Part shown: positions 15,266-47,093 of the stretch, one piece after another | How positions within the stretch are numbered: position 1 is the first letter of the stretch | How the letters are laid out: each line of letters starts with the position of its first letter | Virus record (IMG/VR): IMGVR_UViG_3300038679_000021 | Location: 20,560 to 84,559 of that record | Reading direction: 5' to 3' (one strand) | Length of the DNA stretch: 64,000 nucleotides | Origin: a virus | Taxonomy: Duplodnaviria; Caudoviricetes | Notes under the pieces: model-generated | What the model was told of the DNA's origin: nothing | Seen by the model: only the letters and a program-made list of their open reading frames with translations | The model's database searches: none | Made by a program: the position numbers and the translations under genes

Positions 15266-15774
15266 CGTTTTCCTGTCTTGATGATTCTTAGGACTTTATT
15301 ACTCACTGAAATGTCGCCTAAGATCGGAGTCATATACGGCCTTGGCTGAATCTTTCCGCCGCCAAACTCCAGTAACTCCGCGTAATCTCCGACAACTTTT
15401 GCGTTCCCCCTGTCATCAAATCCTACGAAGTCAGGATCAGGCCCGACAACCGCAGTTCCTTTTCCGGTCATTTGATAGGTGATTGATTGCCTAAGAGTGT
15501 CCGTCTTAACGTAGGGAGGTTCTCCGGGGGACGAATGTTCCTGATCGTCCATGTGTTCTTCCATACTCGCACGGATTCTATCAACTACTTCCTGCGCGGC
15601 TCTTTCGACCCTTCGTTTCATTTCCCTAGTAAGGGCCACACCTACTGCTGCGGATTCGATCTTGACCTTGATGCCTATTCCTTTACGCGCAGAGGTCATA
15701 GTAGCAAGCAAAGCCCTAACCCCCGTGGGCTTTATCCGCCTCCGTATAAACGAACAATCAACAAACCTACTCAC
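15262..15774 (-). CDS. HK97 gp10-like neck/tail protein
   Basis: PGEPPYVKTDTLRQSI...YAELLEFGGGKIQPRPYM motifs; exact start uncertain. Confidence 0.8.
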   Translation of the reverse strand: MSRFVDCSFIRRRIKPTGVRALLATMTSARKGIGIKVKIESAAVGVALTREMKRRVERAAQEVVDRIRASMEEHMDDQEHSSPGEPPYVKTDTLRQSITYQMTGKGTAVVGPDPDFVGFDDRGNAKVVGDYAELLEFGGGKIQPRPYMTPILGDISVSNKVLRIIKTGKR

Positions 15775-16087
15775 GAAGTCTCATCCATAGCTCGGTGTGG
15801 TGTGTCATGCCATGCTTTTGATCCACGTAGAGGACATCAAAAGTCCGCCCCCCATTAACAACACGCGATTTTGAAGTCACCACAGAGTTGGGAAGCATCG
15901 CTAGCTTATGAGTGCTGAAGACTGTCTCTTTCAAGAAGAGCTTCGATTGTTCCTCACCCTGAAGAGACCAAATCCTACAAGGTACAGAAGCGGCAAGAGC
16001 AAAAGTGCTGACTTCGCCACCAGCTTCATCTTGCGTGACAACTGGGGTATGAATCTCGGCTCTGGTATTGAAAGTGATGTGAATCAT
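15767..16087 (-). CDS. Head closure/head-tail joining protein (SPP1 gp16-like)
   Basis: QDEAGGEV...RVVNGGRTFDVLYVD pattern; 106 aa. Confidence 0.85.
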   Translation of the reverse strand: MIHITFNTRAEIHTPVVTQDEAGGEVSTFALAASVPCRIWSLQGEEQSKLFLKETVFSTHKLAMLPNSVVTSKSRVVNGGRTFDVLYVDQKHGMTHHTELWMRLRE

Positions 16088-16090
16088 ACG

Positions 16091-16624
16091 TTAATCCGTG
16101 GTTTCGTTGTAGCTACCAAAACGGTCAGACAGAAAGTGAGCGTCCATATAGGCCAGAGCTATCTCCCCAGTGCCCCACGTGTCCCCAGCAGACAAGCGGA
16201 TAAGCTTCACGTAAAGAATAGAAGAGTAAACCTCGTTCGTCGGCGCGGAAAGGTTAGTAATAATAGTATTGATCTTTTGTTTATACTGATCCGCGCTTGC
16301 CAACGTAATCGTGATAGTATTGGTGTTGGGGAGCGAGGCAGGAATCTCGTCGTTGTGATTATACCAACCCCACGCATAGCTGATCTGAATATCGCCAGCA
16401 GCAGCCGCAATAGGGATGAAGTGAAGGTGGACCGAATCGATAGGTGTACCGAGCGATTTGCGGTGGGGCATCTGAAAGACCATAGAGAAAACATCGTCAC
16501 GCGCAATGTGCGGCATCACTATACCAGTGGAACGGTATTGCCTAGGCGTATAAGTGGTAACGCCAGCAAGGGCTGTCTGAAGGATGCCCTGAATGTCGTC
16601 GTGATACTTATGGGATGTAATCAT
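16091..16624 (-). CDS. Hypothetical virion-module protein
   Basis: 177 aa, coupled to neighbours. Confidence 0.55.
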   Translation of the reverse strand: MITSHKYHDDIQGILQTALAGVTTYTPRQYRSTGIVMPHIARDDVFSMVFQMPHRKSLGTPIDSVHLHFIPIAAAAGDIQISYAWGWYNHNDEIPASLPNTNTITITLASADQYKQKINTIITNLSAPTNEVYSSILYVKLIRLSAGDTWGTGEIALAYMDAHFLSDRFGSYNETTD

Positions 16625-23828: not shown

Positions 23829-25505
23829 TCAGCCAACACAGATTGTATCTAGGGAGCTACTACTTACAAAGGTAGCCGCAAGGTAGTCGTACAAATCAGC
23901 GAATCTCTGATGGTCTTTTCCCTTGCTCCAAACAAATTTCGTATTGCCCTTTGTGTCTGTCTCTTCTTGCCGGACAGGCTCAGTCATTTCCTTGACGTAC
24001 TCTCCCTCAAGTAATGACTCAAAGTTGATTGGAAGAAGATTCTTCCCAGCTTTGAACTCTGCTAGCGTTCTATCTAACCCTGCTGTTCGATCAATAGCGA
24101 TAGACCTATTCTTCTTGTCTTTCTTGATCCTCTTATCGGCACCTTCGGAGCCGAAAGAGCAAGACCAAACAAAGAAAGGGGCCTCTTCTTGAAAATCAAG
24201 AACTGTGCGAAACTCAGGCATTGCATCGATTACTGCCACTTGGACATTGAACTGGACACCCAAGGAGATAAGCTCTTGAAGAGTAGATACCTTCCCAATG
24301 AAGATTGCTTTCCTAACCCCATCAGGAAGAACTTCAGAAATGCGAACATCGAACTTCTTTCCTACGTCAACTCCCATAGAGCATTTCTTACGGGAGAACT
24401 CTTCATTTAAGTACCCTTTATGCTTCTCTGTAGTAAACGAGTAAGGGTCTCGAAGATGCGCTGCTTTCCGGAGAGTTTGAACAGTAAGGCGTTGGTTTCC
24501 AACTACGAAAGGAATACCTAAGTTAGAGGTATAGAAATGCTCTAACCCTGCCGCGCTCTCCCACGCATCTTCCCAAGCTGTGAAAATGTCATAAATGGAG
24601 TTTTCCCATGAGTTCAACATCGTCATGGAATACCCCTCTGTATCACAAGAGGGATTCTCAGGAACCCACAGTCCGGCAGTTGATTGCCTGTTCAACGGGA
24701 CATCGCAAGTGGGGCACATGCAATGAATATCTCTCCCACAATCCCGCCGCCATTCCTGATCGCGGAGTGAGTAATCTACGAAGTTTCCGTCGTCGTCATG
24801 CTTAACAATCACAACAGTCTTGAACCAATCGAGCGGGATTGGTTGCCCGCACTTTTCGCAGGGAATATGCCAGAAGTTCCTCGTTGAGGATTCAAACATG
24901 CGATTGATGCCAACACCTTTAAGAGATGGGTTTCCGATATACCTTCTGAATTGGTAGATGGAACCGCGCAGGCGGTCTCTTGCGTATTGAACGTTAGTCC
25001 CGGCGCACTGATCCAACTCTTCCACAAAGAGCATATCAGCAGGGTACTCTCGCATGTCAGAAAGCACATTGGAGCCGACGTATTTGATCGTTCCTTTTCC
25101 GAAATGCTTGAGAACAGTATTGTCAAAGAAGCCATCCCTAACATAAGCGCGATACTCAGGCGTTTCTCCAATGCGCTTATCGATGCGGTTTTGCACGTAA
25201 GTAGTGCGGGATTCTACTTTCGGAAGAACAAAGAAAATGTTAAGGCCACAGGCGGCTGCTGCGAAATGGTCAATGATGATAAACTCAGATTTCTTCGACT
25301 GTACTGAGCCTTGAATTACGAGACTCTTCGCGAGAGTATTGTAGATTTGAGGTAGGTGGGCATTCCGAACAAAATCCATCCTCTCACCATGGGTGTTCCG
25401 ATGGTATTTTGTGGCGAACTCAATGCGCTTATCACGAACCTCTAGCAGTTTCTCTGCTACTAGAAGATCGCGACGATCAAGAGAAAGAAAATCACGACGC
25501 GTCAT
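23829..25505 (-). CDS. terL: Terminase large subunit (lambda gpA-like)
   Basis: N-terminal ATPase (QSKKSE; LFVEELD), GNPS coupling motif, CEKC..C..C zinc-binding insertion, nuclease MGVDVG...AVIDAMP. Confidence 0.9.
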   Translation of the reverse strand: MTRRDFLSLDRRDLLVAEKLLEVRDKRIEFATKYHRNTHGERMDFVRNAHLPQIYNTLAKSLVIQGSVQSKKSEFIIIDHFAAAACGLNIFFVLPKVESRTTYVQNRIDKRIGETPEYRAYVRDGFFDNTVLKHFGKGTIKYVGSNVLSDMREYPADMLFVEELDQCAGTNVQYARDRLRGSIYQFRRYIGNPSLKGVGINRMFESSTRNFWHIPCEKCGQPIPLDWFKTVVIVKHDDDGNFVDYSLRDQEWRRDCGRDIHCMCPTCDVPLNRQSTAGLWVPENPSCDTEGYSMTMLNSWENSIYDIFTAWEDAWESAAGLEHFYTSNLGIPFVVGNQRLTVQTLRKAAHLRDPYSFTTEKHKGYLNEEFSRKKCSMGVDVGKKFDVRISEVLPDGVRKAIFIGKVSTLQELISLGVQFNVQVAVIDAMPEFRTVLDFQEEAPFFVWSCSFGSEGADKRIKKDKKNRSIAIDRTAGLDRTLAEFKAGKNLLPINFESLLEGEYVKEMTEPVRQEETDTKGNTKFVWSKGKDHQRFADLYDYLAATFVSSSSLDTICVG

Positions 25506-26104
25506 TTGGGATGGTTCGCTGGCAACATAATCTGCCCAAACTTGAGAAGCTTCTCAATAGAGCCAGCAATCTGATCGGGAGTACGCTCTTCTTTGGTATC
25601 TGCTTCGTGGATGATCTGATCGCCCAACTTCTTAAATAACTGCGCGGGATCGCCTGCTCTAGGGATGATTCCAGCATCTTGAAGCAACTTGATCTTCATC
25701 TTGCGGGCTTCAAGAGCCTGTTGGAAGAACTTGGCGCGATTGGGGTCTGGTTCTGTTCGCGACTCTTTAACAGTCCCCGTAACAGGATCGAAAGTCTTAA
25801 CGGTCTTCGGCTCAAGCTGGTGGGCTTCATAGAGAGCGATACGCTCGATCTCATCAAGCCACTGAATGTTAGCTGAAATGATCCCTACGGCGTCCGACTT
25901 GAGTAATTGTTGCCGGTAAATCTCTGTAACGGCAGAGATATCATCCAAAATAACAGCATCAGAAACCTGAAAGACACGCGCCAAAGCGGAAACGGGGATG
26001 CCTTTGATGTAACCATCCCAGACTTTGGCGCGACGTTCCGCCTCAGAGGCGATTTCAATCGTCCCTTTCCTCTCAGGAGGCAGAACTGTAATGTCAGATT
26101 TCAC
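25502..26104 (-). CDS. terS: Terminase small subunit (HTH)
   Basis: N-terminal HTH (GIPVSALARVFQVSDAVILDDI), helical body, overlaps the terL start. Confidence 0.7.
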   Translation of the reverse strand: MKSDITVLPPERKGTIEIASEAERRAKVWDGYIKGIPVSALARVFQVSDAVILDDISAVTEIYRQQLLKSDAVGIISANIQWLDEIERIALYEAHQLEPKTVKTFDPVTGTVKESRTEPDPNRAKFFQQALEARKMKIKLLQDAGIIPRAGDPAQLFKKLGDQIIHEADTKEERTPDQIAGSIEKLLKFGQIMLPANHPK

Positions 26105-26340
26105 GAAGGAGTAGGTGGAAGAACGAGAGTAGACCTCGGATAAAGAGTGGCTAAGTCATCAGACAAAGCACAAGGGAAAGCCCCATCGTGCCCCAACGCA
26201 TGAAGGGCCAGCTTCACTGCCCTCATGCGTTTAGTCCACCCACATTCACACTTGTCATTGAGCGTGATTTTCTCCCAATCGGGATGCTCGAAAGCAACGT
26301 TATCACACTCAAGACAGTTAGGCCATGAGACTAGGATCAT
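26101..26340 (-). CDS. Small Cys-containing hypothetical protein
   Basis: Likely start MILVSW overlapping the ParB-like stop; overlaps terS. Confidence 0.45.
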   Translation of the reverse strand: MILVSWPNCLECDNVAFEHPDWEKITLNDKCECGWTKRMRAVKLALHALGHDGAFPCALSDDLATLYPRSTLVLPPTPS

Positions 26341-27125
26341 ACAGAATCCTTCAGCTTCGATTTCAGGAACGTGCAAATATCAACCTTCGTTGATCGAAGT
26401 TCGTTGACCATCTTCTCAGTCATGTCGAAGAGTTCACCATCCATGAGGACCATCAGATGCGTCTTCCCGCGATAGGCGAAGAACATGAAGTTTCCCGGAA
26501 GATCACCAGCGTAGTTCGAGAAGATGTTGTTCAGAACATCGGAGACCGAATCAATCGCCGTGAGTTCCTTGGAAGTTTCCTTCATTTCCTTGACCCACTT
26601 CTTGTCGTCTTCGGCGGAAGCGGGCTTCAAAAGATGCTTGGCATAGTCCCGGAAATCATCGAACCCCAAGAGCCCCGGCAAAGTTTCGTCCGAAAACCCC
26701 TTTTCCTTCAAGGAAGCAACAAGGGCGGTGAACTTGGAGTCGTCAAGTTCGCCACCAATGAGATTTCTCCGAACCGTCTTGAGTTTCTGCAACTCGATGG
26801 AGTCCCAGCTTTTGACGTAGCAAGGCACAGATGACATGCCAAGCACGCGGGCGGCGCGGAATCGGTGCGCCCCTCCAATGATGGTGTACGTCTGGGGTTC
26901 TCCATCGGCCACGGGATTTGGGACCACAAGAAGAGGGTCGTCAAAACCATCTTCCTTGATTTCGTTCACAAGGGCCGCGAAGTTGGCGTCTGTTTCGACG
27001 TTAGGGTTCCAGTTGTTCTCTACGAGTTGTCCCATAGAGATCAACTCAGGGACATTGATCCTCACTCCGGTATCTTCCGCAGGGGCTTCTGGAGAATCCG
27101 CAACATCAATAACTTCGTCTTCCAT
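26337..27125 (-). CDS. ParB/Sulfiredoxin-like N-terminal domain protein
   Basis: LVENNWNPN...LVNEIKEDGFDDPLLV...YTIIGGAHRFRAARVLGMSSVPC. Confidence 0.88.
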   Translation of the reverse strand: MEDEVIDVADSPEAPAEDTGVRINVPELISMGQLVENNWNPNVETDANFAALVNEIKEDGFDDPLLVVPNPVADGEPQTYTIIGGAHRFRAARVLGMSSVPCYVKSWDSIELQKLKTVRRNLIGGELDDSKFTALVASLKEKGFSDETLPGLLGFDDFRDYAKHLLKPASAEDDKKWVKEMKETSKELTAIDSVSDVLNNIFSNYAGDLPGNFMFFAYRGKTHLMVLMDGELFDMTEKMVNELRSTKVDICTFLKSKLKDSV

Positions 27126-27132
27126 AAGTTCC

Positions 27133-28587
27133 TCACAGCATTTTCATTGTTACTAGGTCTTGGATCGAGGCCCCTACTCTTTGGAAAAGAGCCCCTCCGC
27201 TTCCGCCAACATCTGCGAACCCGAGCAAAAGGAGAGCATCCCGATAAACTCCCGGACTTCTTCCGTATCTGGCCCCCGTCTTATTGATCTGGATACCTTT
27301 GTCCGAGGATTCCTTGACATGCTTGACAAGCTCCACCCAAGAAATCAGATTTTTTCCTTTCGTAAACTCTTCCATAAGACGAAAGGCGACGGATTTTATT
27401 GTCCGCAGCTTCTTTCTTACCAGAGTTTCGACTACTTTGTCAATCAGAGCGTCTGCGTTACCTTGCTTGGCATATACTATCCGCAAGAAGTTTATCTGTT
27501 TGTCGATAACTTCTTGCACTTCCTTTGAGTGGTAGTTATCGATCAGGTGACGAAGAATAGCGGCACCCTCAAGCGGATTCGAGTAGAGGTAGGGGTAATC
27601 AGGAAAAACATAATCCCCCTGCCAATACCGCCCTTTATGGAAAACACCTATCTGGCGAAGCATCTGCTGCGTTACAATCGAAGCAGAAATCTCCCCCTCG
27701 GAGGCGTCGAACAAGAAGATATGCCCTGAGCGAAGCCACTTGACCCACTCGTCGTAAGAGATGTTTCTCGTCCAGACAGCGTGCTTGTACTTGTCCGGAA
27801 TCTGGTGGACCTGTTCGAAAACAGTGAGATCAGAAGGCGTGTTGATCTGAAGAGTAACATCCCTACCGCCTGCGTAAGCCTTGTCCATGAGATCGAAAAT
27901 CTCAAGGACTCCCGCAGCCCCGCTCATGGCAACTGCGAAGTTTAGAACTATCGGTTTGGCGGGCTTCGGGCAAGTACCGTCAAACTTGGAGAAGTCGAAG
28001 AAGGGAAGGAACTTAAAGCTCCGATCTCGCACAGCATTGAGCATCAGTGGCGACAGATACTTCGAAGCTACTCTAGCTGCTCTGGTGTACTGAGAGTCGC
28101 TAACATAGAAGTTGAGGTCTGCATGGTAGAGACCAGCAGATTGGTTCATCAGTATCTCTTCGTCAACGTAACCATGCGTTGTCTTATCGAGAATGAACTG
28201 AAAGAAATTCGCGTAAACACGCTCTGTCTGCCCGCCAGTGCATCCGGTAAGACCTGAAAGAAGACCCCGGAGGTAAGGGGTAGATGCTACCTTTTCGGTG
28301 AGAACTACATCAAGAAAGTCTGTTCCATCATCCCAAAAACGACTGATCTCAGGTGGGATAAACCGCATCTCGAACTGCTGCCGTTGCCTCCAAGTTTCGG
28401 CAGAGATAAGTTGAATACGAGGATGATTAAAAGACTCGGTGTTCTTGATTTGTTTCGGGATTACAAGGTAAACAAAGGCGTTCTGAAAGCGATCAAGAAA
28501 CCGAAAGAGGATGATCTTTGAGGACCGAAGGGACGAACAAACCTTAGCGTCTGCGCTTGTCAGCAAAGGGACATACAGAATTCTCAT
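27133..28587 (-). CDS. Divergent GT-B glycosyltransferase-like protein with basic C-terminal extension (candidate DNA glycosyltransferase)
   Basis: MRILYVP first strand, two Rossmann-like halves, WLRSGHIFLF; no canonical EX7E; adjacent to ParB-like gene. Confidence 0.55.
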   Translation of the reverse strand: MRILYVPLLTSADAKVCSSLRSSKIILFRFLDRFQNAFVYLVIPKQIKNTESFNHPRIQLISAETWRQRQQFEMRFIPPEISRFWDDGTDFLDVVLTEKVASTPYLRGLLSGLTGCTGGQTERVYANFFQFILDKTTHGYVDEEILMNQSAGLYHADLNFYVSDSQYTRAARVASKYLSPLMLNAVRDRSFKFLPFFDFSKFDGTCPKPAKPIVLNFAVAMSGAAGVLEIFDLMDKAYAGGRDVTLQINTPSDLTVFEQVHQIPDKYKHAVWTRNISYDEWVKWLRSGHIFLFDASEGEISASIVTQQMLRQIGVFHKGRYWQGDYVFPDYPYLYSNPLEGAAILRHLIDNYHSKEVQEVIDKQINFLRIVYAKQGNADALIDKVVETLVRKKLRTIKSVAFRLMEEFTKGKNLISWVELVKHVKESSDKGIQINKTGARYGRSPGVYRDALLLLGFADVGGSGGALFQRVGASIQDLVTMKML

Positions 28588-29228
28588 GCTCGCATCCTCA
28601 AGATTCTAAAAGCTTCGGCGTACTTAGCTTGTATTGACAAGCCACGAAATCGCAAGTAAGCCTCGACTTGTTTCTTCCCCCGAAAAGCGTTCATCTCATC
28701 ACCATAAGCGGAGATGGCCCGCATCTTCGCGGAGACATCGGTAATGTCAAGGCATGTAAAGAGATTAGGCGAAAACGTCCGTGGAGTCAACTCAGAAGCA
28801 GAAGGAACTTCGAACTCGATCAAATCCAGCGGAAGTCTCCGAGTTGCTATTTCCACTGCCTGCGAAACTCTGCGATGATCTTGGTTGAAATCTTCCGACC
28901 AATGGGTATAGACGCGATCCGGCTGAAGTTTTCTGAGAACATTCTCGATGGAAGAAATCAGGGCGATAAACTGATCGCTATTCTGAACTTGTTCGTCCTC
29001 ACAACCACCGAAGAAAAGCAGTGAGGGCATAACTCCGAGTTCCTTACAGGCTAGCACAGCCCGTATACGAGACGTAGCCGCTGCTTTTTCGTCCTTCAAG
29101 TTGTGAACCCTCTTTGCCAAGCAAAAGAGAACCCCGCAGTATCCATCAGAGTGGGAAAGCTTGTGGATAGTTCCGCCAGAAGAAAGCGTTTCATCATCAC
29201 AGTGGGCGACTACAAAGAGATTTCTCAT
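28584..29228 (-). CDS. PIG-L/LmbE family deacetylase
   Basis: VAHCDDETLSSGG and THWSEDFNQDHRRV motifs. Confidence 0.9.
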   Translation of the reverse strand: MRNLFVVAHCDDETLSSGGTIHKLSHSDGYCGVLFCLAKRVHNLKDEKAAATSRIRAVLACKELGVMPSLLFFGGCEDEQVQNSDQFIALISSIENVLRKLQPDRVYTHWSEDFNQDHRRVSQAVEIATRRLPLDLIEFEVPSASELTPRTFSPNLFTCLDITDVSAKMRAISAYGDEMNAFRGKKQVEAYLRFRGLSIQAKYAEAFRILRMRA

Positions 29229-29956
29229 AAGACCCTCCAAGGTACATTAGAGAGGATGAATTCTTTCCTCTCTACACTCCCGCCATTTCGGATATTCGGA
29301 ACTTTCGTGGCATAGGCAAACTGAAAAGGCATCCCCGGAAAAACATCAGTGGATTCAGAGTAAGTTGCTACGAAAGGAATCCCTTTTGTTAAGCAGATAT
29401 CAAACAAACGCATAGCTTGAAGAATCGCAGTAGAGTCGGAATGCTCACCATAGTTGGCAGAAGTTTTTGTGTAAGGAGGATCGATGAAAAGAAACATTCC
29501 GTCTGCGGGTTCGACACAACTTGAAGTGGCGCAAAAGACAAGGCCCTTCTTGAGAAAAGGGATCGCCTCAATCGTCTTTTCAACAGGGAGGTTATGTTGA
29601 GGGTACAGAGAATAAGACGAAAGCTGCCCAACCATCACACTAGCACAGTTGATCCTGAGATAAGTTTGCTCTTCCGGCTTTAACCCTAGCGTTCTGACAT
29701 CTTTCTTAGCTTCTCTATTTACGTCACAAATAGCTTTGAGTTCCCTCAACCGAGAAATAGGGACTCGTTGAAGCCACAAGAGCATCATCACAAGTTCTTC
29801 GTTTACATCAACCCCCAGAAAGCGCGAGCCTTGATTCAAACTAAAAGCCAAGCTCCCGCAAAAGGGTTCCACAATTACTTCGTGAGGGGGCATCTCTACA
29901 GCAACCTTTCGGAGCCATCTTCCCTTATTCCCAGAGTACCTGAACAAAGCCCTCAT
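29225..29956 (-). CDS. DNA adenine methyltransferase (Dam/D12-like)
   Basis: Likely start MRALFRYSGNKG; EPFCGS (motif I) and FIDPPY (motif IV). Confidence 0.88.
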   Translation of the reverse strand: MRALFRYSGNKGRWLRKVAVEMPPHEVIVEPFCGSLAFSLNQGSRFLGVDVNEELVMMLLWLQRVPISRLRELKAICDVNREAKKDVRTLGLKPEEQTYLRINCASVMVGQLSSYSLYPQHNLPVEKTIEAIPFLKKGLVFCATSSCVEPADGMFLFIDPPYTKTSANYGEHSDSTAILQAMRLFDICLTKGIPFVATYSESTDVFPGMPFQFAYATKVPNIRNGGSVERKEFILSNVPWRVL

Positions 29957-30999
29957 ATAAAATTCGGCGTCCTTGTGTGAAGAAGGTTGTGGATCATCAG
30001 ATTGTACTTCGTGTGGCGGCAAGAAGGACAAAACCTCTGGCAAATGTTAGGGTCTAGCATACCTCGAATATACTTTTCCCTCTTCTTTCCAGTCCAGATC
30101 GCTTCAACAGATTCTTCGTAGATATTCCCGATTATTCCGAGACTCTCCCCAGTAGGAAGATGAACAGAATGAAGGCGGCAACAGAAGAAGACACTTCCAT
30201 CAGAGCCGATCACAGAAGAGAGATTGTGAGCCCTACAAGGGAGCCCGAGATTCCCCGAAGCGTCAACTTCCCAGTCAAGCTGATGGGTATAGACCTTGAA
30301 CGTTTCCGTTTGTAGGTCGTTTACCGGCGGCATCTTCCAATCAATAGGGATGTTACGATCCTCTTTGTCGTCAAGTGTTCGGATTTGAACATAGTCCACT
30401 TCGATATCCCGAAGCCGCTGCGTGATACCATAGATATCCGTGATCGAGTAGGAACTAATAAGGTAGCCTACTCCAATGACACACTTTTCTTTCACTTTGG
30501 ACCATGCTGCAAGATTCGCGAGAACCTTCTCGAAGGCGTCAACTCCCTTAGCAGCCTTGTACTCTTCCTTAGTAGAAGCATCAAGAGAGACTCGAATCCA
30601 CTCGAACTCTTTGATTACATCGTTGCTAAGAGGCTGAACTCCGTTAGTAATCAGCCCTACAGCGAGGCCGATCTTCTTAATCTCTCGCACAATAAACTCG
30701 AAATTCTTGTGGAGGGTAGGCTCCCCGCCGCCTTCGAGGACTACCCCATGGGTTCCCATAGCCTTGAACTCTCTCAGGGCTTTCAACAATGCATCCGGCT
30801 GAAGCTCCCCACAATGACGCTTTCTCCATTCGATATCGACGCACCATTTGCAGTCGAGATTGCATCGGGAAGTCAAACTGACTTCGATGGAAATGGGGGC
30901 TTTGGAAAAATCACCAACAGTAAGCGCAGAAAGCCTCTCAGGATGCAGGAAAATCTTGGAAGACGAAAACTCAACTTCAGGTGAGGGGCGGATTTTCAT
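29953..30999 (-). CDS. Radical SAM protein with SPASM/twitch domain
   Basis: CNLDCKWC; GGGEPTLH; C-terminal CRAH...FCC...IGNI...C..C..C. Confidence 0.9.
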   Translation of the reverse strand: MKIRPSPEVEFSSSKIFLHPERLSALTVGDFSKAPISIEVSLTSRCNLDCKWCVDIEWRKRHCGELQPDALLKALREFKAMGTHGVVLEGGGEPTLHKNFEFIVREIKKIGLAVGLITNGVQPLSNDVIKEFEWIRVSLDASTKEEYKAAKGVDAFEKVLANLAAWSKVKEKCVIGVGYLISSYSITDIYGITQRLRDIEVDYVQIRTLDDKEDRNIPIDWKMPPVNDLQTETFKVYTHQLDWEVDASGNLGLPCRAHNLSSVIGSDGSVFFCCRLHSVHLPTGESLGIIGNIYEESVEAIWTGKKREKYIRGMLDPNICQRFCPSCRHTKYNLMIHNLLHTRTPNFI

Positions 31000-31000
31000 T

Positions 31001-31687
31001 TCATCCTCTCAAGTAGTTACGAACAGCATCCCAGTTGGGCATGTTCGCTATCAGGTCAATTATCGAAAGCTCAGGAACAAAACTTCCAGAAAACGTGCAT
31101 TGCGGATAAGGAGGACAGGGCCACGTATCTTTCACAATCTCGATGCCTTCGAATATCTCCCGCTTCAGGTACTCAAAAGCAGAATCTCCGACCAAAAATT
31201 TGGTGCATCCCTTTAATTTGCAAAGGGCATTAAGCTGATGCTGCACAGCATCAGTGCCTTCCGAACTTACGTAGGTTGATCCAGAAAGTTGAACATGGGT
31301 CTCTATCCCAATCTTCCCTAGGATTATCTTGAGAACAGAAACAGCAAAAGAGTTAAACGGATAGTCAATATACTTTCTGGTGTCCCTCTCAATCTCTTTC
31401 AAAGCGTCAATACCGGGGCTCCTTGCATAAGTGTGAAGAATAGCCTTCCAATGGAAGTTGACAACTGCCCTGTCAAAATCCACATTGCGAATAGGGACTT
31501 GCTTCTTCCCTTTAATGGGGAGCGTAAGCATCAAAGGACCGTTTGGAAGAAGAATCCTATTACGGTTAATCCAATCCCCTTTGACAAATTGCACGGTGTC
31601 AAAAGCGACAAAAGCATCGCTTCTGGCAATGCGCGAGAAATACCGCACAGAAGGGAGGTAATGAAGCTGGTGAGCGGAGAAAATCAT
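31001..31687 (-). CDS. WbqC-like protein
   Basis: HQLHYLPSVRYFSRIARSDAFVAFDTVQFVKGDWINRNRI...LTLP; YPQ...FVPELSIIDLI. Confidence 0.9.
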   Translation of the reverse strand: MIFSAHQLHYLPSVRYFSRIARSDAFVAFDTVQFVKGDWINRNRILLPNGPLMLTLPIKGKKQVPIRNVDFDRAVVNFHWKAILHTYARSPGIDALKEIERDTRKYIDYPFNSFAVSVLKIILGKIGIETHVQLSGSTYVSSEGTDAVQHQLNALCKLKGCTKFLVGDSAFEYLKREIFEGIEIVKDTWPCPPYPQCTFSGSFVPELSIIDLIANMPNWDAVRNYLRG

Positions 31688-32856
31688 ATCTCGCGAATCC
31701 TATCCCATTCCCGCAAAACGTTGCAAACTGATGCCGCTTTCTCTTCGTCAAACTTTGCTGAGATCGGAAGGCAAACATGGGATTTGGTAACATGGTCTGA
31801 AACAGGGAAGGTGTCCGTGAAGTTTACCCACCCATTCGCGTAGGGACTAAGCATAAAGTAAGGTTGCTCATGGAGACCAAAAGCAAAAACATCCATCTGC
31901 GCCGGAGTCCCATTGCTCTTTAACAGCCCCTTCAGACGCTCCGCTTGCAGAGGGGTTTCGCAAATAACGATAACTTTGTAGTAGTTGGGAATGCAGTTTT
32001 CGCAGAAGACTGGCTCATTCCTTTCTTCGAAGAAATCCCCATAGTAATCGGCATAACGAGTTCGCTCTGCGATCATCTGAGGAAGGAAAGACTGCACATG
32101 ATGGCAGATACAAGCATTGACATTGCTCATCCTACCATTGAATCCGGCATAAGCATATTGATCCAACCATCCGGGATTCTGCCTTCCAATATCTCTGAGA
32201 CGAATCAACTTCTCATAGAGCCCGCGGTCTTTCGTTACTATGCACCCTCCCTCTGCTCCGAAAGCAACCTTTGTGGGATAATAAGAAAACACACCAGCAT
32301 GCCCAATGCTGCCACCAAATTGCGTTTCCAGCTTCCTTCCGGCATTACCGGGCGCAACTTGCCATGTGCTAATACGTACTCCATGAGCGTGAGCCGCATC
32401 TTCGATAAGATGAATCCCCGTCGTGTCACAGAAATCACGGAGCTTGAGTATATCTTGAGAAATGAAGCCTCCAATTGACACGTAGACGATAGCGACTACA
32501 TCCTCCCCTGCATAGTGGGTAATCATCGTCTTATCATCGACTGCTAGCATCATATTGGAAGGATCAACGTCTCTGAAAAGCACCTTATGCCCTGCATTGA
32601 CTGCGGCAATGGCAGTTGCGAAATGCGTGTTTGTGGGAATGATTACAATACCCTTCCTAGGGAGGGCACGGAAGACTAACTCCAATCCTGCTGTCCCTGA
32701 TCCGCAGGAAACAGCATAGTGTGATCCGGCCATGATCTTGGTCTGGTCTTCAAACCGCGAGTTCCACACCCCATGGGTGAGCCAGCCGCTTTTCAGGACT
32801 TCTTCCAGCTTCACCATCAGGCCGGGAACATCGGGGACTTCAATAGTAGGTTTCAT
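31684..32856 (-). CDS. DegT/DnrJ/EryC1/StrS PLP-dependent sugar aminotransferase
   Basis: SGTAGL, IEDAAHAHG, FSYYPTKVAFGAEGG (PLP lysine), GFNGRMS. Confidence 0.93.
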   Translation of the reverse strand: MKPTIEVPDVPGLMVKLEEVLKSGWLTHGVWNSRFEDQTKIMAGSHYAVSCGSGTAGLELVFRALPRKGIVIIPTNTHFATAIAAVNAGHKVLFRDVDPSNMMLAVDDKTMITHYAGEDVVAIVYVSIGGFISQDILKLRDFCDTTGIHLIEDAAHAHGVRISTWQVAPGNAGRKLETQFGGSIGHAGVFSYYPTKVAFGAEGGCIVTKDRGLYEKLIRLRDIGRQNPGWLDQYAYAGFNGRMSNVNACICHHVQSFLPQMIAERTRYADYYGDFFEERNEPVFCENCIPNYYKVIVICETPLQAERLKGLLKSNGTPAQMDVFAFGLHEQPYFMLSPYANGWVNFTDTFPVSDHVTKSHVCLPISAKFDEEKAASVCNVLREWDRIREI

Positions 32857-32857
32857 A

Positions 32858-34111
32858 TTACTCCCTTATCCATTTTTTTCGGTGATTCAACCGCAAAGCT
32901 CTTTCCCAAGTCCCACTAGAAACACCCCAAAAATCAAGAAGTCGCGGGTCTGCTACAGAAGCCCGCCCACCAGCCATATCGGATGGAAACACGTCTTTTA
33001 CGGCATCATAAAGCTCGGAGTTACCGAAAGGATAGGTCACTGCAAGGCTATACCAATCCGCCCCCATGGCCTCGAATCCGTCCAGACTCTCGTTGTAATC
33101 CGCGTCAGTACAGCCCGGAGCCCCAAGCATGACGTACACCGCTACAGGAACTCCGTTGGCTTTGAGAAGAGCTACGGCTTCTTTCGCCTGCGCGACAGTG
33201 ATTCCTTTGTGGAAAGCATCCAGCATTCGTTGGGAACAAGCTTCGACACCTAGCTTGATCTGTTTGCAGCCCTGAAGATTTCCGGCAAGTTCCGGGGTGA
33301 TATCATCACACCGGGCATCACAGACGAAAGGAATTCTTCGATTACGGAGAAGTGAGATGACGGCCTCTGCCCTAGTGGGGTTGATAAACAAAGAATCATC
33401 CACGAACTGAAGGAAGAACTTTTGGCCTTTGTAGAGGTCTGCAAAGTAATCCAACTGCCTCTTGATATATTCGATAGGATAGAAGCGAACATGCCCCCAA
33501 ATTCTCTTGGAGGAACAGAAAGAACATTTGAAAGGGCATCCCCGAGAGGAAGCAATCTGATTGAACTCGTTCGGCTTTGTGGGAGGAACAAGCATGCAGT
33601 CTTTGGTAATAATCGGAAGATTCCCGTAATCCACAGAAGTCGGAGTGATATACGAAGGAAGACGAGCGGGGTCTATCACGCGGAGAATAGATGAATCAGA
33701 CTCCCCAATGAAAGTAGGGAAACCTCTCCCAACCTTCTCGGCGGCAGGCCCACCAACAAAAACCCGAGGAACTAGGGGAGAAAGCCCAGAGAGTAAAGCA
33801 CGGGCCTGAATCAGGGTGCCTTCATTTACAGAAACCCCCACGGCATCTGGTTGGAAGTCCAAAACCTCCCTGAAAATGCTTTGATAAACCTCGTCGTCCA
33901 GATTATGAATCCTTCGCGGATACTCCACAGCATTTTTGAGCAACTGCTTGAGAGGAATTGGAGGAACGCTTGCGAAATCTCCGTTGAGAACCTTTGCGTC
34001 TACCCCGTGACTTCTCAGGGTTTCTGCTAAGAACATCGGCCCTAAAGCACTCCATTCTGTTCGGGAGCCAAGAAACCGATAGTAGGGTGGGGTGATAAAC
34101 AATACTTTCAT
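32858..34111 (-). CDS. B12-binding radical SAM protein
   Basis: Likely start MKVLFITPP (TAATG overlap); N-terminal cobalamin-binding-like domain (LGPMFLAETLR, PDAVGVS, VFVGGP); SRGCPFKCSFC. Confidence 0.88.
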   Translation of the reverse strand: MKVLFITPPYYRFLGSRTEWSALGPMFLAETLRSHGVDAKVLNGDFASVPPIPLKQLLKNAVEYPRRIHNLDDEVYQSIFREVLDFQPDAVGVSVNEGTLIQARALLSGLSPLVPRVFVGGPAAEKVGRGFPTFIGESDSSILRVIDPARLPSYITPTSVDYGNLPIITKDCMLVPPTKPNEFNQIASSRGCPFKCSFCSSKRIWGHVRFYPIEYIKRQLDYFADLYKGQKFFLQFVDDSLFINPTRAEAVISLLRNRRIPFVCDARCDDITPELAGNLQGCKQIKLGVEACSQRMLDAFHKGITVAQAKEAVALLKANGVPVAVYVMLGAPGCTDADYNESLDGFEAMGADWYSLAVTYPFGNSELYDAVKDVFPSDMAGGRASVADPRLLDFWGVSSGTWERALRLNHRKKWIRE

Positions 34112-34638
34112 TAAACACCAAGTTTTGTAGCTATCAAAGTGGCCCCAACCCGCAAAACATGACACCCAACTTTCTGAAGCATTTCCGGAACAAAAGTAAC
34201 AACATGCCTCTCATGCTCATTACCAAAAGCGGGGTCTTGAGGGTCTGGGCCATCAGGAACAGCTATTACAATATCGCAAGAACTGGGAACTTTAGAAATG
34301 ACAGACTCCCATGTAGGAATATGCTCAAGAACATCCCCAAAAATAACGAGGTCCGCTTTTGGGAAGAGAAAGTTAGGGTTGGAAACATCGGCGAAAATGA
34401 TGTCGTCATAAATCGCACGGTGATGGTCTTGGACATATGCTGGAAAAACCTCAACAGCAGTTAAGTGAACTTTCCAGTCCTTAGATAGAAAGACTCCGTT
34501 CTTGAGGCACTCAAGATATTCCCGGCAAAGAAGACCGAACTTCCCAAACCCACAGCCGACATCAACAATCCTCTTGGGGTTTTGCTGAAGAATGAACCTC
34601 ATCATAGGCTCAATAGACTCTAAGTTACTTGTCGGCAT
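34111..34638 (-). CDS. Class I SAM-dependent methyltransferase
   Basis: IVDVGCGFGKFG; DLVIFGDVLEH. Confidence 0.88.
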   Translation of the reverse strand: MPTSNLESIEPMMRFILQQNPKRIVDVGCGFGKFGLLCREYLECLKNGVFLSKDWKVHLTAVEVFPAYVQDHHRAIYDDIIFADVSNPNFLFPKADLVIFGDVLEHIPTWESVISKVPSSCDIVIAVPDGPDPQDPAFGNEHERHVVTFVPEMLQKVGCHVLRVGATLIATKLGV

Positions 34639-35218
34639 TTACGATATTCCTTTTGTCTAAGAGGGTTTTTGCCTCTTCCGGAGAATACCCGACAAGCTCA
34701 AGAACTTTCTCAGCGTATCGGTTTGGCCGTTCCTTATCGAGTAGCCCGCCTTCTTCGCAGAACTTCCTCGCGCCCTTCTGGCCGACAAAGCCTAGCTCTT
34801 TTCCCCTCTTCGTGTGCATATCCACAGCGAAAGATGGGATTGCAGGCTTCCATCCCTTCTCCGCGACTTGCGCCACAATCCAATCGAGATCACAAGCCTC
34901 ATGGGATTTGACTGCCCTACACATCTTGAGAATGGCGCAAGCAACGATGTTAGTCTCCGCAGATTTCGGGGCGTCTTTCATCGCCACGTTCGAGAGGTAA
35001 TGGCAAGAGGCCACGTAAGGGAGAACATCGGGCTCTCCGGCGCAATCCTCTCCGGCGGTGACTGCCAGCCGCCGCCACATATACGCGGCGAATCCGTTTT
35101 CGATCATCACACGCGCCCAGTACATCGCGTGAACTTCATCGCCCCTTCGAATGGTCTTCTGCAAAGCAGAAACAACCTCATCCAAAGGATACGCTCCGCA
35201 CATCAGAATGTCAGCCAT
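34625..35218 (-). CDS. Stand-alone MgsA/RarA C-terminal-like domain protein
   Basis: SALQKTIRRGD...YWARVMIENG..YMWRRLAVTAGED...AVDMHT; no AAA+ module. Confidence 0.8.
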   Translation of the reverse strand: MADILMCGAYPLDEVVSALQKTIRRGDEVHAMYWARVMIENGFAAYMWRRLAVTAGEDCAGEPDVLPYVASCHYLSNVAMKDAPKSAETNIVACAILKMCRAVKSHEACDLDWIVAQVAEKGWKPAIPSFAVDMHTKRGKELGFVGQKGARKFCEEGGLLDKERPNRYAEKVLELVGYSPEEAKTLLDKRNIVNADK

Positions 35219-35265: not shown

Positions 35266-35961
35266 TCAGCGATACTTGGCTAGAACTGAATCTGGTAGTT
35301 TCTCGACAATGCTCTTCAAATAGCTGATTTGCTTGTCTGTGAGAGAAAACCGTCTGCGGTATTGCGTGGTCATGCTCTTGATAACTTCCTTCGCTTTGTC
35401 ATTAAACAAATGCAAGTTATCATTAGCTATCGTGATGTACTTTGAAGCCAGAGACTTCCTCTCGTCAGCGGTATAAACAGGAGCGGGCCTTATTACACCA
35501 TGGTGCGACTTCTCCGAAACAAGAGAATCAAAGACCCGTACAAAGGCATCAGCCTGTTCCCGCGTAGGGGGAGACTTCGATGCGGTGACGCGATCTGCAA
35601 TCGATTGCAGGAAGCTGACTCGTTCAGTCGGGGCACCCTCAAGTTTTCCGTGGAGGAAGCCGGAAAGCCTCCGCGTGAAAGCCGGGAAAGCTACTGAGAG
35701 GTTCTCAAGGAAAGTCTCGGGGTCAGAAGAGTAGACCTTAAACTCAGTAGCGGGAAGGAACAGTGCCTCCCTAACCTTGACAGGGGCCGCAAGAATACAT
35801 GCCGCGCAAAGGTGAATCTTCACTATCTCAAGATACCCAGAAGAGGTAAAAAGGACTGAGGAATTCGACCTAGCGCAGCTATCGCAAACTTTTGGGAGTG
35901 CGTTCTCGGAAGCAGCCCAACAAGGAATCAGGCTCAAAGCCTCAAAATCAGAGGAAGTCAT
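35266..35961 (-). CDS. Hypothetical protein (N-terminal Cys motifs)
   Basis: 231 aa ORF in the minus-strand run. Confidence 0.55.
   Translation of the reverse strand: MTSSDFEALSLIPCWAASENALPKVCDSCARSNSSVLFTSSGYLEIVKIHLCAACILAAPVKVREALFLPATEFKVYSSDPETFLENLSVAFPAFTRRLSGFLHGKLEGAPTERVSFLQSIADRVTASKSPPTREQADAFVRVFDSLVSEKSHHGVIRPAPVYTADERKSLASKYITIANDNLHLFNDKAKEVIKSMTTQYRRRFSLTDKQISYLKSIVEKLPDSVLAKYR
35595..35610. promoter_or_regulatory. Palindrome CTGCAATCGATTGCAG (intragenic copy)
   Basis: Read directly. Confidence 0.7.
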
Positions 35962-36290
35962 TATTCGATCACTTCACAAAGTAAGCTCTTGCCATTAGCG
36001 GTATAGCGGATCACCTTCAGCTTGGAGACAAAGAATGTGCCTCCAATAGGTTGCAGACTCTTCTGAGATTCCGGAAGAATAAGGCACACGATCCCTTTCT
36101 CAGAAGAGGTTAGGAACCAGCCATTCGCTGCTACTTCAACAGCGACTCGGCAGAAAACAGCCTTCTTTCGAACGCCGCCTTCCTCCTTATTGGAGATAGA
36201 CAAAGGGATAAGATCGCCGTTCAGGGAACACAGGATGTCCCCAGCCTTCGGCTGATCCTTCTTCAACTTCATGAAGAGAGACTCTTCCAT
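35961..36290 (-). CDS. Hypothetical protein
   Basis: Coupled to neighbours. Confidence 0.5.
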   Translation of the reverse strand: MEESLFMKLKKDQPKAGDILCSLNGDLIPLSISNKEEGGVRKKAVFCRVAVEVAANGWFLTSSEKGIVCLILPESQKSLQPIGGTFFVSKLKVIRYTANGKSLLCEVIE

Positions 36291-44534: not shown

Positions 44535-45293
44535 TCAGATAGCTTTTGCCCAGAGGTAATCGATTGGGCTCAACTGGACATGATAAGGAAACGCCTTGAG
44601 AAGTTTGTCAGCACGAAGAACTTCTTTCCTAGTGGTAAGCTCGATCAGAACTACTTGCGTGTTCTCAAGGGTATTAGAGGCCCCTTCCAAAACCTGAATG
44701 CCATGCCCTTCTGCATCGATTTTCAGAACATCGACCACTCGATCTTCCACCATGGCATCTAAAGGATTGATACAGACACCATCTTGTTGGGTGTCTTCGC
44801 CCTTTGTAGGATAAAGAGAGGCACAGACATCTCCTGTCCCTTGAGAGTACAGATAAGCATATCGATGAGCGGCCCCCGCCGCAGCGCAGAAAACTTCGCG
44901 AGCCCCTACGCAGTACAATCGATCAGTCAATCCCGCTTGAGGTTCGATGGCCTGAACAAACGCGTTAGGGTTGATGCGAAGACACCGAAGAACAAAAGCC
45001 CCATGGTTGGCTCCAACGTCTACTATAAAGGGCTCGCTCGCTCCCCGCACTTGTTTGATCCAAATCGGAGAATCAAGCTCTCGCTCAACCATCAGGCCCC
45101 AGTGAGTAATCAGAGCCCCCGGAGTGTCTAACTCGTAGAATCCATCACGCATACGCCAACAGATTCTCCGGGTCTTGAGGTACGCCAACCGCAACGCGAG
45201 AAGGCGGCTAGTCCAGATTGGCCTATGGAGAAACTCTCTGCTAATCCCGCGCAGAGACTTCTTTATATGGTAGCGAAGAAACTCAGGTTTCAT
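44535..45293 (-). CDS. FkbM-family methyltransferase
   Basis: IVDVGANHG; AIEPQ; VDVLKIDAEGHG. Confidence 0.88.
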   Translation of the reverse strand: MKPEFLRYHIKKSLRGISREFLHRPIWTSRLLALRLAYLKTRRICWRMRDGFYELDTPGALITHWGLMVERELDSPIWIKQVRGASEPFIVDVGANHGAFVLRCLRINPNAFVQAIEPQAGLTDRLYCVGAREVFCAAAGAAHRYAYLYSQGTGDVCASLYPTKGEDTQQDGVCINPLDAMVEDRVVDVLKIDAEGHGIQVLEGASNTLENTQVVLIELTTRKEVLRADKLLKAFPYHVQLSPIDYLWAKAI

Positions 45294-46177
45294 TTGAGGC
45301 TCCACTGAGATGACGGAGGGGTGGGGGTGTAGTGCCGGGTGAAATCAGAACACCTTCGGCAAATAGCGTATTTGAATACGCCCTCTGCCAAGTCCTTTCG
45401 CACTTTCCTGAAAGGCTCCCCTTCCCAGATTTCTCTCAGACTCTTATCCTTGATGTTCCCAAACACATGGGTTTTGAAGTAGTCCACACAGCATAGCACT
45501 ACTTCTCCATCCAAAGAGATTGTCAAAGACGCTTCAGGAATCCGGCAGCTACCTGTCTTGATAGTCTCAGACTTTTCTCCTTCGGGGATAGGAACAAGAC
45601 CTCCGAAGTTTCCGAATGGAGTCCCGTGAATCTTGAACACTTCCACTGTATCGGGAAAAGCTGCGCGAATCTGCTCGATACGCTCTCGCCAGTCGAAAGA
45701 GGGCTCTTTGTCGTGTTGCGTAACGACAATGTGATACATACCTATGTCGATCAACTTCTTCGCCAAATCCATGGTAAGGTAATCACCATTCGTATGAAGC
45801 TTCGGCATCGCTCCCGGAACCGATTCCTTCGTCTTCTTTACGATATCGAGGAAGTCAGGATTCAGAAGAGGCTCACCAAATCGGTTGTATACAAGAGGTC
45901 CGATAAAGCCGTATTCCCGCAATCGCGAGCATACCAAGTCCAGCATTTCCGGCGTGATCCTTCGAGAGACAGGGGTGTACTTAGAGTTTGGGCAATGCCC
46001 ACACCTTCGATTACAAGCCGTGTTAATCTCCAAGTTGACGCTACGGAAAACATCGCGATTCCCTTGCAACTTCTGTATGAGGTTCAGGACAGGAACGCCA
46101 ATGCGGTAGGATTGCCTTCCAAGAACTCGCTTGGCGACATGAAAGCCGGTCTTGAGAATAGTTTGCGTTAAGCTCAT
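45290..46177 (-). CDS. Radical SAM protein with SPASM/twitch domain
   Basis: CNRRCGHC; FGEPLL; LHTNG; C...DGEVVLCC.D...FGNI...C..C. Confidence 0.9.
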   Translation of the reverse strand: MSLTQTILKTGFHVAKRVLGRQSYRIGVPVLNLIQKLQGNRDVFRSVNLEINTACNRRCGHCPNSKYTPVSRRITPEMLDLVCSRLREYGFIGPLVYNRFGEPLLNPDFLDIVKKTKESVPGAMPKLHTNGDYLTMDLAKKLIDIGMYHIVVTQHDKEPSFDWRERIEQIRAAFPDTVEVFKIHGTPFGNFGGLVPIPEGEKSETIKTGSCRIPEASLTISLDGEVVLCCVDYFKTHVFGNIKDKSLREIWEGEPFRKVRKDLAEGVFKYAICRRCSDFTRHYTPTPPSSQWSLK

Positions 46178-46878: not shown

Positions 46879-47093
46879 AAAGCATCGTGATCGAAAGGTA
46901 CAGTCTTCGAAGAAAAGGTATCATATCTTACCTGCTTTCCGGTCGAGGATGAAAGCTATAACGCAAAGAACCACTACAAAAGCGAGATACAAATACGCTC
47001 CAATTGGAGAGAGTATCATCTCGATAATCGAGTTCCCACTTTTCTCCAAAGACGAATAAGGAGAAAGTGACTCCGCTGTTCGGATTACGTTTG

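Follow-up and report, generated by a model that had tools for sequence, protein, structure and literature searches.

A phage glycosyltransferase-ParB pair with a bacterial-type amino-sugar cassette beside the terminase genes, and its possible role in DNA glycosylation

The stretch of DNA analysed here, called the window, comprises 64,000 nucleotides, i.e., bases 20560-84559 of the 84,559-bp linear IMG/VR virus record IMGVR_UViG_3300038679_000021. The record belongs to a phage of marine type and is about 84% complete according to CheckV. On the minus strand of the window, at 26337-35218, ten consecutive genes encode a glycosyltransferase (GT), a ParB-like protein and enzymes of amino-sugar chemistry, and lead into the terminase genes. 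This block consists of two modules: a conserved, phage-specific core made up of the ParB-like protein and the 484-aa glycosyltransferase, whose phage family is named GT480 here, and a variable tailoring cassette taken over from glycan clusters of bacteria. The block follows the known phage hypermodification theme of GT, ParB and terminase, its GT being of a new family and combined with a cassette for amino sugars. Our preferred reading, to which we assign a probability of roughly 45%, is that ParB assists in glycosylating the phage DNA, the sugar being an N-acetylhexosamine (HexNAc) that is deacetylated, aminated, re-acylated and methylated.

DNA is favoured as the acceptor mainly because of the pairing of the GT480 gene (27133..28587, minus strand as all genes of the block) with the ParB-like gene (26337..27125). 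Sixteen genomic contexts of GT480 were examined, from marine, sludge and other metagenomic contigs and from six cultured phages. A ParB-like homologue was found at most 2.8 kb downstream of GT480 in 13 of 13 independent loci with enough flank, and the linkage is obligate. The ParB homologues align over their full length with 30-49% identity, and the loci span phages of Actinobacteria, Alpha- and Gammaproteobacteria as well as marine and sludge metagenomes. The cultured carriers, with their E-values against the GT480 profile, are Arthrobacter phage DanielleIgnace (1e-120), Agrobacterium phage JP1 (1e-76), Rhodobacter phage RcKickapoo (3e-70), Vibrio phage VH2_2019 (2e-47), Stenotrophomonas phage DLP3 (2e-46) and Rhizobium phage RHph_Y1_11 (7e-38); the core module is present in the cultured phages DLP3/DLP5, RcKickapoo-type, VH2_2019/PG28, JP1, RHph_Y1_11 and Kitkat/DanielleIgnace. 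Where loci have to be told apart they are numbered: L003 is a relative from TARA, L013, L014 and L020 are RcKickapoo, DLP3 and JP1, L021 and L022 are bacterial contigs, and L001 is the part of the record outside the window, so that window positions 1-64000 and L001 make up the whole genome. The terS and terL genes follow directly after the pair in most loci, and the pair is kept without nearby terminase or structural genes in L015, where a ribonucleotide reductase gene follows, in L017 and in L009.

Domain assignments were drawn from Pfam, PHROGs and NCBIfam. The ParB-like protein of the window matched ParB_N above the cut-off (1.7e-8) and phrog_26387 (3.6e-36), and its nucleotide-binding box is intact (GGAHRFRAAR, GxxRxxA). 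Short phage ParB-like proteins have been shown experimentally to be cognate activators of thymine dioxygenases on double-stranded DNA, and the commonest neighbours of such dioxygenases are GTs, ParBs and terminases (PMC13229309). Co-occurrence of GT, ParB and terminase is also typical of phage DNA hypermodification clusters (PMC8256090; bioRxiv 2023.12.21.572611). The likeness to the ParB-dependent thymine dioxygenases (O'Toole et al. 2026, PMC13229309) comprises a short ParB, the NTP box and a single cognate enzyme, but the partner here is a glycosyltransferase, and the dependence on ParB is deduced from co-occurrence only. On this basis the ParB-like protein is most likely the cognate partner of GT480.

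An exhaustive HMMER scan gave a GT480 family of 125 clusters, with proteins of about 470-510 aa. Ten of the 60 aligned members matched Glycos_transf_1 (best 1.5e-12); the window protein has no Pfam match and matched the glycosyltransferase family phrog_30253 (1e-8). In the AlphaFold2 model (predicted local distance difference test, pLDDT, 89; predicted TM-score, pTM, 0.90), residues 1-373 form two Rossmann-like domains with the core topology of GT4 enzymes. Foldseek matched the model to PglA, MshA, BshA, PimA and HepE, with E about 1e-10 and TM by target about 0.7, and to SenB with a similar E; the full-length structural matches were Arthrobacter phage glycosyltransferases (TM 0.8). Residues 373-484, modelled alone with pLDDT 81, matched almost solely winged helices (ArsR, MecI, forkhead, PadR, LOTUS) with Z of 5.4-6.7, and conserved arginine occurs in the putative recognition helix and wing. 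A search of the Atlas with this C-terminal domain gave no matches. GT480 is thus predicted by its model to be a GT4-type retaining core with a C-terminal winged-helix-like domain. Of its nearest structures, PglA, MshA, BshA and SenB are mostly users of UDP-HexNAc. As to the gene preceding GT480, it is a small DprA-like gene in RcKickapoo (L013 4618-5007) and JP1 (L020 983-1399), directly adjacent in both, and a NADAR-domain gene in L015.

Further features support DNA: the winged-helix-like domain, the intact GxxRxxA box together with the published ParB-activator precedent, and the tight translational coupling of the block into terS and terL. The initial annotation had proposed a modification of DNA or of the virion; DNA is the best supported acceptor, through the obligate GT-ParB pairing, the precedent and the winged-helix-like domain.

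Several points weigh against DNA. The nearest GT480 structures act on small molecules or lipid-linked sugars. T4 BGT and AGT, a comparison proposed in the initial annotation, are not among the top PDB matches listed by Foldseek for the GT480 model, and a cyanophage "DNA alpha-GT" appears in BFVD only at rank 34 with TM 0.43-0.48. The match to winged helices is of middling quality (Z below 7, Foldseek E 0.17), domains of this type also serve in contacts between proteins, and the isoelectric point of the family is not consistently basic (median 7.0). A GT4-like gene with weak NCBIfam GT4 matches was also found in the tail module of the window, at 13241-14371, and it fits glycosylation of the virion. 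In such a scheme GT480 and the tail-module GT4 would decorate capsid or tail proteins, as some actinobacteriophages glycosylate virion proteins, and the ParB gene would be related to packaging and merely share the position. The late operon runs into structural genes, the tail-module gene is weakly matched by a gene from the structural region of DanielleIgnace, GT480 is closest to GT4 enzymes which do not act on DNA, and the restriction-site avoidance described below suggests unshielded DNA. However, GT480 and ParB stay together in the three loci without terminase or structural neighbours, the ParB homologues are themselves co-conserved at the identities given above (30-49%), and a DNA acceptor accords better with the winged-helix-like domain and with the published precedent for ParB activators. 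We regard virion protein glycosylation as unlikely, although it ranks second after DNA.

The 84,559-bp record (84% complete) yielded no ThyA, Tet_JBP, C5-methyltransferase or TGT/DpdA, in agreement with the initial annotation, which had recognised no known base-activating enzyme; nor were ThyA, TET/JBP, C5-methyltransferase or DpdA found in four complete cultured relatives. PF12851 and PF00303 gave no match in the record and the four complete relatives, with the limit that the Tet_JBP control gave no signal in one scan. The sole type of thymidylate synthase present in the record is ThyX. Consequently no known acceptor hydroxyl would be made, and neither the record nor the four complete cultured relatives yielded an enzyme producing a known glycosyl acceptor, such as hydroxymethylpyrimidine, 5-hydroxycytosine (5hoC), a TET/JBP product or a deazaguanine. 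The genome also avoids restriction sites: 28 of the 64 six-base palindromes are missing, where about 20 of each were expected, and CCWGG occurs once against about 165 expected. Only 40 of all 4096 hexamers are absent from both strands, and the 12 non-palindromic ones among them all contain CCWGG. Four-base palindromes are not avoided (GATC has 423 sites), yet CGATCG, TGATCA and GGATCC are absent. Several other GT480 carriers are also palindrome-poor. Avoidance of this kind is the classic signature of DNA open to attack by type II restriction enzymes. DNA of the module carrier DLP3 has been reported as resistant to 15 of 15 restriction enzymes (PMC7326821), but sites for 11 of the 15 are absent from the 24.6 kb examined, and this resistance was therefore dropped as strong support; it probably reflects largely the absence of sites. 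SmaI, with 14 sites, and ClaI, with 6, are the sole informative enzymes, XbaI and NdeI having one site each. Resistance to SmaI and ClaI despite the sites being present was counted in favour of DNA.

Site avoidance, the lack of an acceptor-making enzyme and the missing DLP3 sites together make a blanket shield, i.e., a global and fully protective DNA modification, unlikely, whereas a partial or sequence-addressed modification is possible. The anti-restriction function suggested in the initial annotation is, as a blanket shield, weakened by the extreme site avoidance.

A candidate address for such a modification is a dispersed 14-bp palindrome, TGCAATCGATTGCA (TGCAA-N4-TTGCA), with five exact copies in the window against 0.02 expected and 7-8 in the genome. 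The sites lie at window positions 3209, 23755, 35596, 43785, 62390 and 63892 and at L001 positions 11289 and 17202. L003, the TARA relative, has the same core in the corresponding position, immediately ahead of the portal start. RcKickapoo has 48 sites with up to one mismatch, DLP3 has 25 sites of the variant GCAATCAATTGC (none for the reversed-pattern control), VH2_2019 has two sites, and the commonest 10-mers of JP1 form the related TGCAAACGTTTGCA. The Arthrobacter phage has no such palindrome, and RHph_Y1_11 gave no match to the core, which was screened without its variants. The proteobacterial carrier phages also share a distant capsid gene, so that any protein they have in common may be the one to which the palindrome belongs. 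For KorB, a ParB homologue, dispersed operators of palindromic form are known, and by analogy the palindrome may be a parS- or operator-like site, or a loading or target site of ParB-GT480. In the latter case ParB-GT480 could load at the palindromes and glycosylate a canonical base or the backbone directly with the de-acetylated, aminated and re-acylated amino sugar, without a hydroxymethyl- or hydroxy-pyrimidine precursor. We hold this direct route to be unlikely; if true, it would mean a new acceptor chemistry for DNA glycosylation in Stenotrophomonas, Rhodobacter, Agrobacterium and Vibrio phages.

The sugar to be attached is suggested by the tailoring cassette. The PIG-L/LmbE-family de-N-acetylase (28584..29240; Pfam 3.8e-16, 60.2 bits against a cut-off of 28.2; phrog_11796 4.7e-31) stands alongside GT480 in 9 of the 16 contexts. 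It carries the metal-binding AHxDD motif as AHCDDE at residues 12-17, and among PDB entries it lies closest to diacetylchitobiose deacetylase and an LmbE-related protein. The PIG-L enzymes MshB, BshB and BtrD act on N-acetylglucosamine (GlcNAc) already attached to an aglycone, which favours deacetylation after transfer. DegT, WbqC and the radical S-adenosylmethionine (SAM)/SPASM enzyme are frequent near GT480, and the set varies among relatives, as diversifying selection would produce, which was counted in favour of the preferred reading. A short-chain dehydrogenase/reductase (SDR)/epimerase replaces the radical SAM enzyme in DLP3, RHph_Y1_11, L015 and L016 and supplements it in L009 and L018; extra genes in relatives encode ATP-grasp, PS-decarboxylase-like, N-acyltransferase and UDP-sugar dehydrogenase proteins and a second GT.

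The DegT/PseC-type aminotransferase (31684..32856; Pfam DegT 2.7e-57, 195 bits; PseC 2.3e-40) is a fold-type I pyridoxal phosphate (PLP) enzyme with the catalytic Lys196 in SYYPTK196VAFGAEGG, a lysine and not the dehydratase histidine, and is conserved in L003, L009, L015, L018, DLP3 and RHph_Y1_11. The radical SAM/SPASM enzyme (29953..30999; Pfam Radical_SAM and SPASM, the latter with 36.8 bits against a cut-off of 21.5) has the motif CNLDCKWC and six C-terminal cysteines (255, 273, 274, 320, 324 and 327). Its homologues have 52% identity in L003 and 41% in L009. More than 1,400 homologues were found altogether, and many of the best are bacterial fusions of about 570 aa to a sugar cytidylyltransferase (CTP_transf_3), with about 40% identity. 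In the bacterial contigs L021 and L022 the gene adjoins DegT, the order in L022 being radical SAM/SPASM, DegT, methyltransferase, radical SAM/SPASM, methyltransferase, WbqC, NeuB, one further gene, PIG-L and cytidylyltransferase. This cluster, of the nonulosonic-acid type, shares five tailoring families and the radical SAM/SPASM-DegT adjacency with the phage, the radical SAM/SPASM proteins being about 40% identical, but the phage lacks NeuB and the cytidylyltransferase and adds GT480 and ParB. Because of the homology and the bacterial glycan context, the radical SAM/SPASM enzyme is predicted to act on the sugar, the proposed reaction being an oxidation which feeds DegT. The cassette as a whole is a bacterial glycan toolkit, nonulosonic-acid-like and of bacterial origin, and the sugar-tailoring chemistry of the block has good support.

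This bears on two proposals of the initial annotation. The first, that the acceptor base is activated by radical SAM and B12 chemistry, is not supported: homology and bacterial context led us to reject the radical SAM enzyme as base activator, with its closest relatives fused to sugar cytidylyltransferases and its place beside DegT, and the B12-type enzyme is absent from relatives. The second was that, with no sugar dehydratase seen, the precursor would be host-derived. The missing dehydratase is accepted, but needs no special explanation, since both steps, to the keto and to the amino sugar, can be provided by the conserved pair of radical SAM/SPASM and DegT, or by SDR and DegT in relatives, and an NDP-sugar dehydratase is then not needed.

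The bacterial context of the cassette could also mean that the target is a host envelope glycan, i.e., lipopolysaccharide (LPS) or capsular polysaccharide, teichoic acid or a lipid II-type carrier, modified for superinfection exclusion or receptor masking. The cassette stems from clusters for bacterial surface glycans, with NeuB, cytidylyltransferase and MurJ/MatE flippase neighbours in L021/L022; DLP3 and DLP5 are temperate; and the authors of the DLP3 study propose LPS modification for their GT (PMC7326821). On the other hand, the same GT family, acceptor-side domain included, is found in phages of both Gram-positive and Gram-negative hosts, and with a pairing constant across such diverse hosts a host-specific envelope acceptor is not expected. 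The phage block has no membrane-associated GT or flippase, its genes belong to a terminase-coupled late lytic operon and are not moron-like, and the ParB linkage is obligate. We find an envelope acceptor quite improbable.

The WbqC-family protein (31001..31687; Pfam 1.6e-38) recurs in phages together with PIG-L and GT, occurs also in the bacterial L022, and has no solved structural relative. A Streptomyces operon of ProRSx, GT4, WbqC and LmbE lies beside an aminoacyl-tRNA synthetase paralogue and a tRNA (PMC10404621). By analogy, WbqC possibly re-acylates the freed sugar amine, perhaps with an amino acid, which we treat as a lead. The Streptomyces trio, together with a single weak match of one GT480 family member to QTMAN_N, could also point to glycosylation of RNA, e.g., tRNA, as by the queuosine glycosyltransferases. 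But ARAGORN and Rfam found no tRNA or known RNA family in the genome, the QTMAN_N match stands alone, and the linkage with ParB and terminase points to DNA; an RNA acceptor is very improbable.

The enzyme logic also resembles that of soluble metabolites. As in mycothiol and bacillithiol synthesis (MshA/BshA, MshB/BshB, MshC), a GT4 enzyme would transfer GlcNAc, an LmbE enzyme deacetylate it and a ligase acylate the amine. Two of the top structural matches of GT480 are MshA and BshA, to which it is only about 8-11% identical when aligned by structure; the ligase there is related to aminoacyl-tRNA synthetases, whereas here it would be WbqC, in a phage setting with a ParB partner. In aminoglycoside tailoring (BtrN and BtrS, BtrD, AprD4), radical SAM oxidation likewise leads to DegT amination and PIG-L acts on attached GlcNAc. 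AprD4 is the nearest among named structures to the B12-like radical SAM enzyme of the phage, but by sequence the phage enzymes resemble BtrN and AprD4 only weakly (E 5e-4 and 9e-8, partial length) and no 2-deoxystreptamine genes were found here. The product could then be a mycothiol- or aminoglycoside-like infection metabolite, as with butirosin (BtrN/BtrS) or apramycin (AprD4), or a deoxynucleoside mono- or triphosphate modified before replication, for which the unusual residues in motifs A and B of the phage PolA and the presence of MazG and ThyX could speak. Yet there is no 2-deoxy-scyllo-inosose (2-DOI) or inositol-phosphate synthase and the block has no kinase or nucleotidyltransferase; such a target would leave the ParB pairing and the winged helix without explanation, and the changes in PolA have no link with the block. 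We give a soluble target only a small chance.

The remaining enzymes of the cassette are less widely conserved. The class B-type radical SAM enzyme (32858..34165) matched Radical_SAM with 1.8e-18, has the motif CPFKCSFC, and falls below the cut-off for B12-binding (1.1e-4; 22.4 bits against 32.1). Its PDB neighbours are 9ccb and AprD4, the latter, its nearest named structure, being cobalamin-independent. The best database homologues are only 25-28% identical, no close relatives were found, and it is absent from every related locus; it is an orphan accessory add-on. The Dam-type N6-adenine DNA methyltransferase (29225..30043; MethyltransfD12 8.3e-9, 36 bits against 22; phrog_56 7e-17) has the motifs EPFCGS and FIDPPY, the Pfam match covering the N-terminal part only. 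The small class I SAM methyltransferase (34111..34638; GCGFG motif) matched Methyltransf_23 with 4.5e-6 and 26.9 bits, just under the cut-off of 27, and this call and the B12-binding domain are the only weak ones in the block. The B12-type enzyme and both methyltransferases are private to the phage of the window, the small one not being conserved in L003. A gene annotated as "Erm" lies inside the homologous sugar cluster of DLP3 and may be a tailoring methyltransferase, and a divergent ThyX-like gene follows the DLP3 terL (L014 coordinates 8921-9601 and 15393-16286 cover these two genes). In L015 a Thy1 gene (2307-2978) abuts PIG-L. A second tailoring-like cluster is present in the window at 44535-47798 and 48355-49008, with an FkbM-type methyltransferase, two class I methyltransferases and a second radical SAM/SPASM enzyme (CNRRCGHC), and is followed by a canonical ThyX.

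In the preferred reading, ParB-assisted glycosylation of DNA, the ParB-like protein would hold or activate GT480 on replicated phage DNA late in infection, and GT480 would transfer a HexNAc, probably GlcNAc, from the UDP-sugar pool of the host. This step is supported by the UDP-HexNAc users among the nearest structures and by the action of PIG-L on attached GlcNAc. PIG-L would then strip the N-acetyl group, radical SAM/SPASM would oxidise a sugar hydroxyl and DegT aminate the resulting ketone, WbqC could re-acylate the free amine, possibly with an amino acid, and the methyltransferases and the B12 enzyme would add methyl groups before the modified DNA is packaged. We infer the DNA acceptor, the donor sugar and the order of these steps, including whether tailoring comes before or after transfer.

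Among known systems, the glycosylation clusters based on 5mYOX/TET or ThyA (Burke 2021, PMC8256090; bioRxiv 2023.12.21.572611; PMC13326640) are alike in having a GT, tailoring genes and ParB beside the terminase, in the variation of tailoring among relatives and in the late, pre-packaging placement. They differ in that the phage of the window and its four complete relatives have no 5mYOX, C5-methyltransferase or ThyA homologue, and in that GT480 is GT4-like with a winged-helix tail, neither a BGT-like GT-B nor a JGT-like GT-A enzyme. A cassette of PIG-L, WbqC, radical SAM/SPASM and DegT has not been reported in those clusters, and the block is, as the initial annotation held, undescribed as a system. 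If the acceptor is DNA, the block would represent a widespread uncharacterised route to glycosylated phage DNA, with a new GT family and ParB partner, no known base-activating step, and deacetylation and re-acylation chemistry of amino sugars not yet seen on DNA. It would then bear on how phages evade or engage host defences, on the sequencing and cloning of their DNA and on the enzymes available for labelling DNA. With a protein as acceptor, virion glycosylation would be extended well beyond actinobacteriophages. The acceptor question is directly testable, since the same core module is present in cultured phages.

The ten genes of the block are co-directional and mostly overlapping, and lead into terS-like, terL and portal genes. 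Open reading frames (ORFs), domain calls and intact catalytic motifs agree with the gene content given in the initial annotation, and its reading of the block as an operon of coupled genes for the tailoring of amino sugars, with a ParB-like gene before the terminase, is borne out by gene content and junctions. Starts were refined for the B12-type enzyme (M19 at 34111), Dam (M30 at 29956) and PIG-L (M5 at 29228). With these, the junctions from the first gene to ParB are -14, -1, +1, -4, +1, -4, -4, -4 and +7 nt. The first gene encodes an MgsA/RarA C-terminal-like protein of 197 aa (34625..35218; MgsA_C 5.6e-7; phrog_33349 2.3e-16), homologues of which lead the cluster in L003 (54% identity) and L009 (36%) and, more weakly, are present in DLP3 and DanielleIgnace. 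Downstream of ParB, a 91-aa Cys-rich ORF and the terS-like gene (25502..26376) have no family matches. The ParB/91-aa ORF junction is -40 nt as called, and the 91-aa ORF/terS-like and terS/terL junctions are -4 nt each. The terS-like protein is conserved in relatives and has a counterpart with 44% identity at the same position in L003. The terminase large subunit (23829..25505; phrog_675 2.2e-62) forms the downstream end of the coupled block. Upstream, two genes of 231 and 109 aa (35266..36290, minus strand) belong to the transcription unit of the block; they have homologues in the same position in L003 (28% and 47% identity) and no family, PDB or Atlas assignment. The 231-aa gene was considered as a split RarA ATPase and dropped, as it has no Walker A motif. 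A strong terminator-like hairpin at 37611-37582 (minus strand), upstream of the ligase gene, has a 12 bp stem with 10 G-C pairs and is the probable starting point of the transcription unit to which the block belongs; promoter- and terminator-like sites within the block are not commoner than in shuffled sequence.

By megablast no nucleotide-level relative of the block was found among cultured phages, and the phage terL shares no more than about 22% identity with those of cultured phages. Scans of IMG/VR for close relatives carrying the 484-aa GT, the B12-type enzyme and radical SAM/SPASM gave no matches. The genome encodes its own replication genes (PolA, DnaB-like helicase, primase, RecA, SNF2 helicase and ligase) as well as ThyX, MazG, a CobS-like AAA protein, terL, portal and a long tail module. 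In the family A DNA polymerase (L001 11904-13838, minus strand) motif A reads DVSQFQLR, where Gln replaces the steric-gate Glu of Pol I, and motif B reads RQDGKTCNFALIFK, where Phe replaces the conserved Tyr. The CobS-like protein (AAA_5 and CbbQ_C) adjoins an 826-aa protein without Pfam match, the two lying at L001 1004-4932, and in L009 a CobT-like gene lies directly upstream of the sugar cluster.

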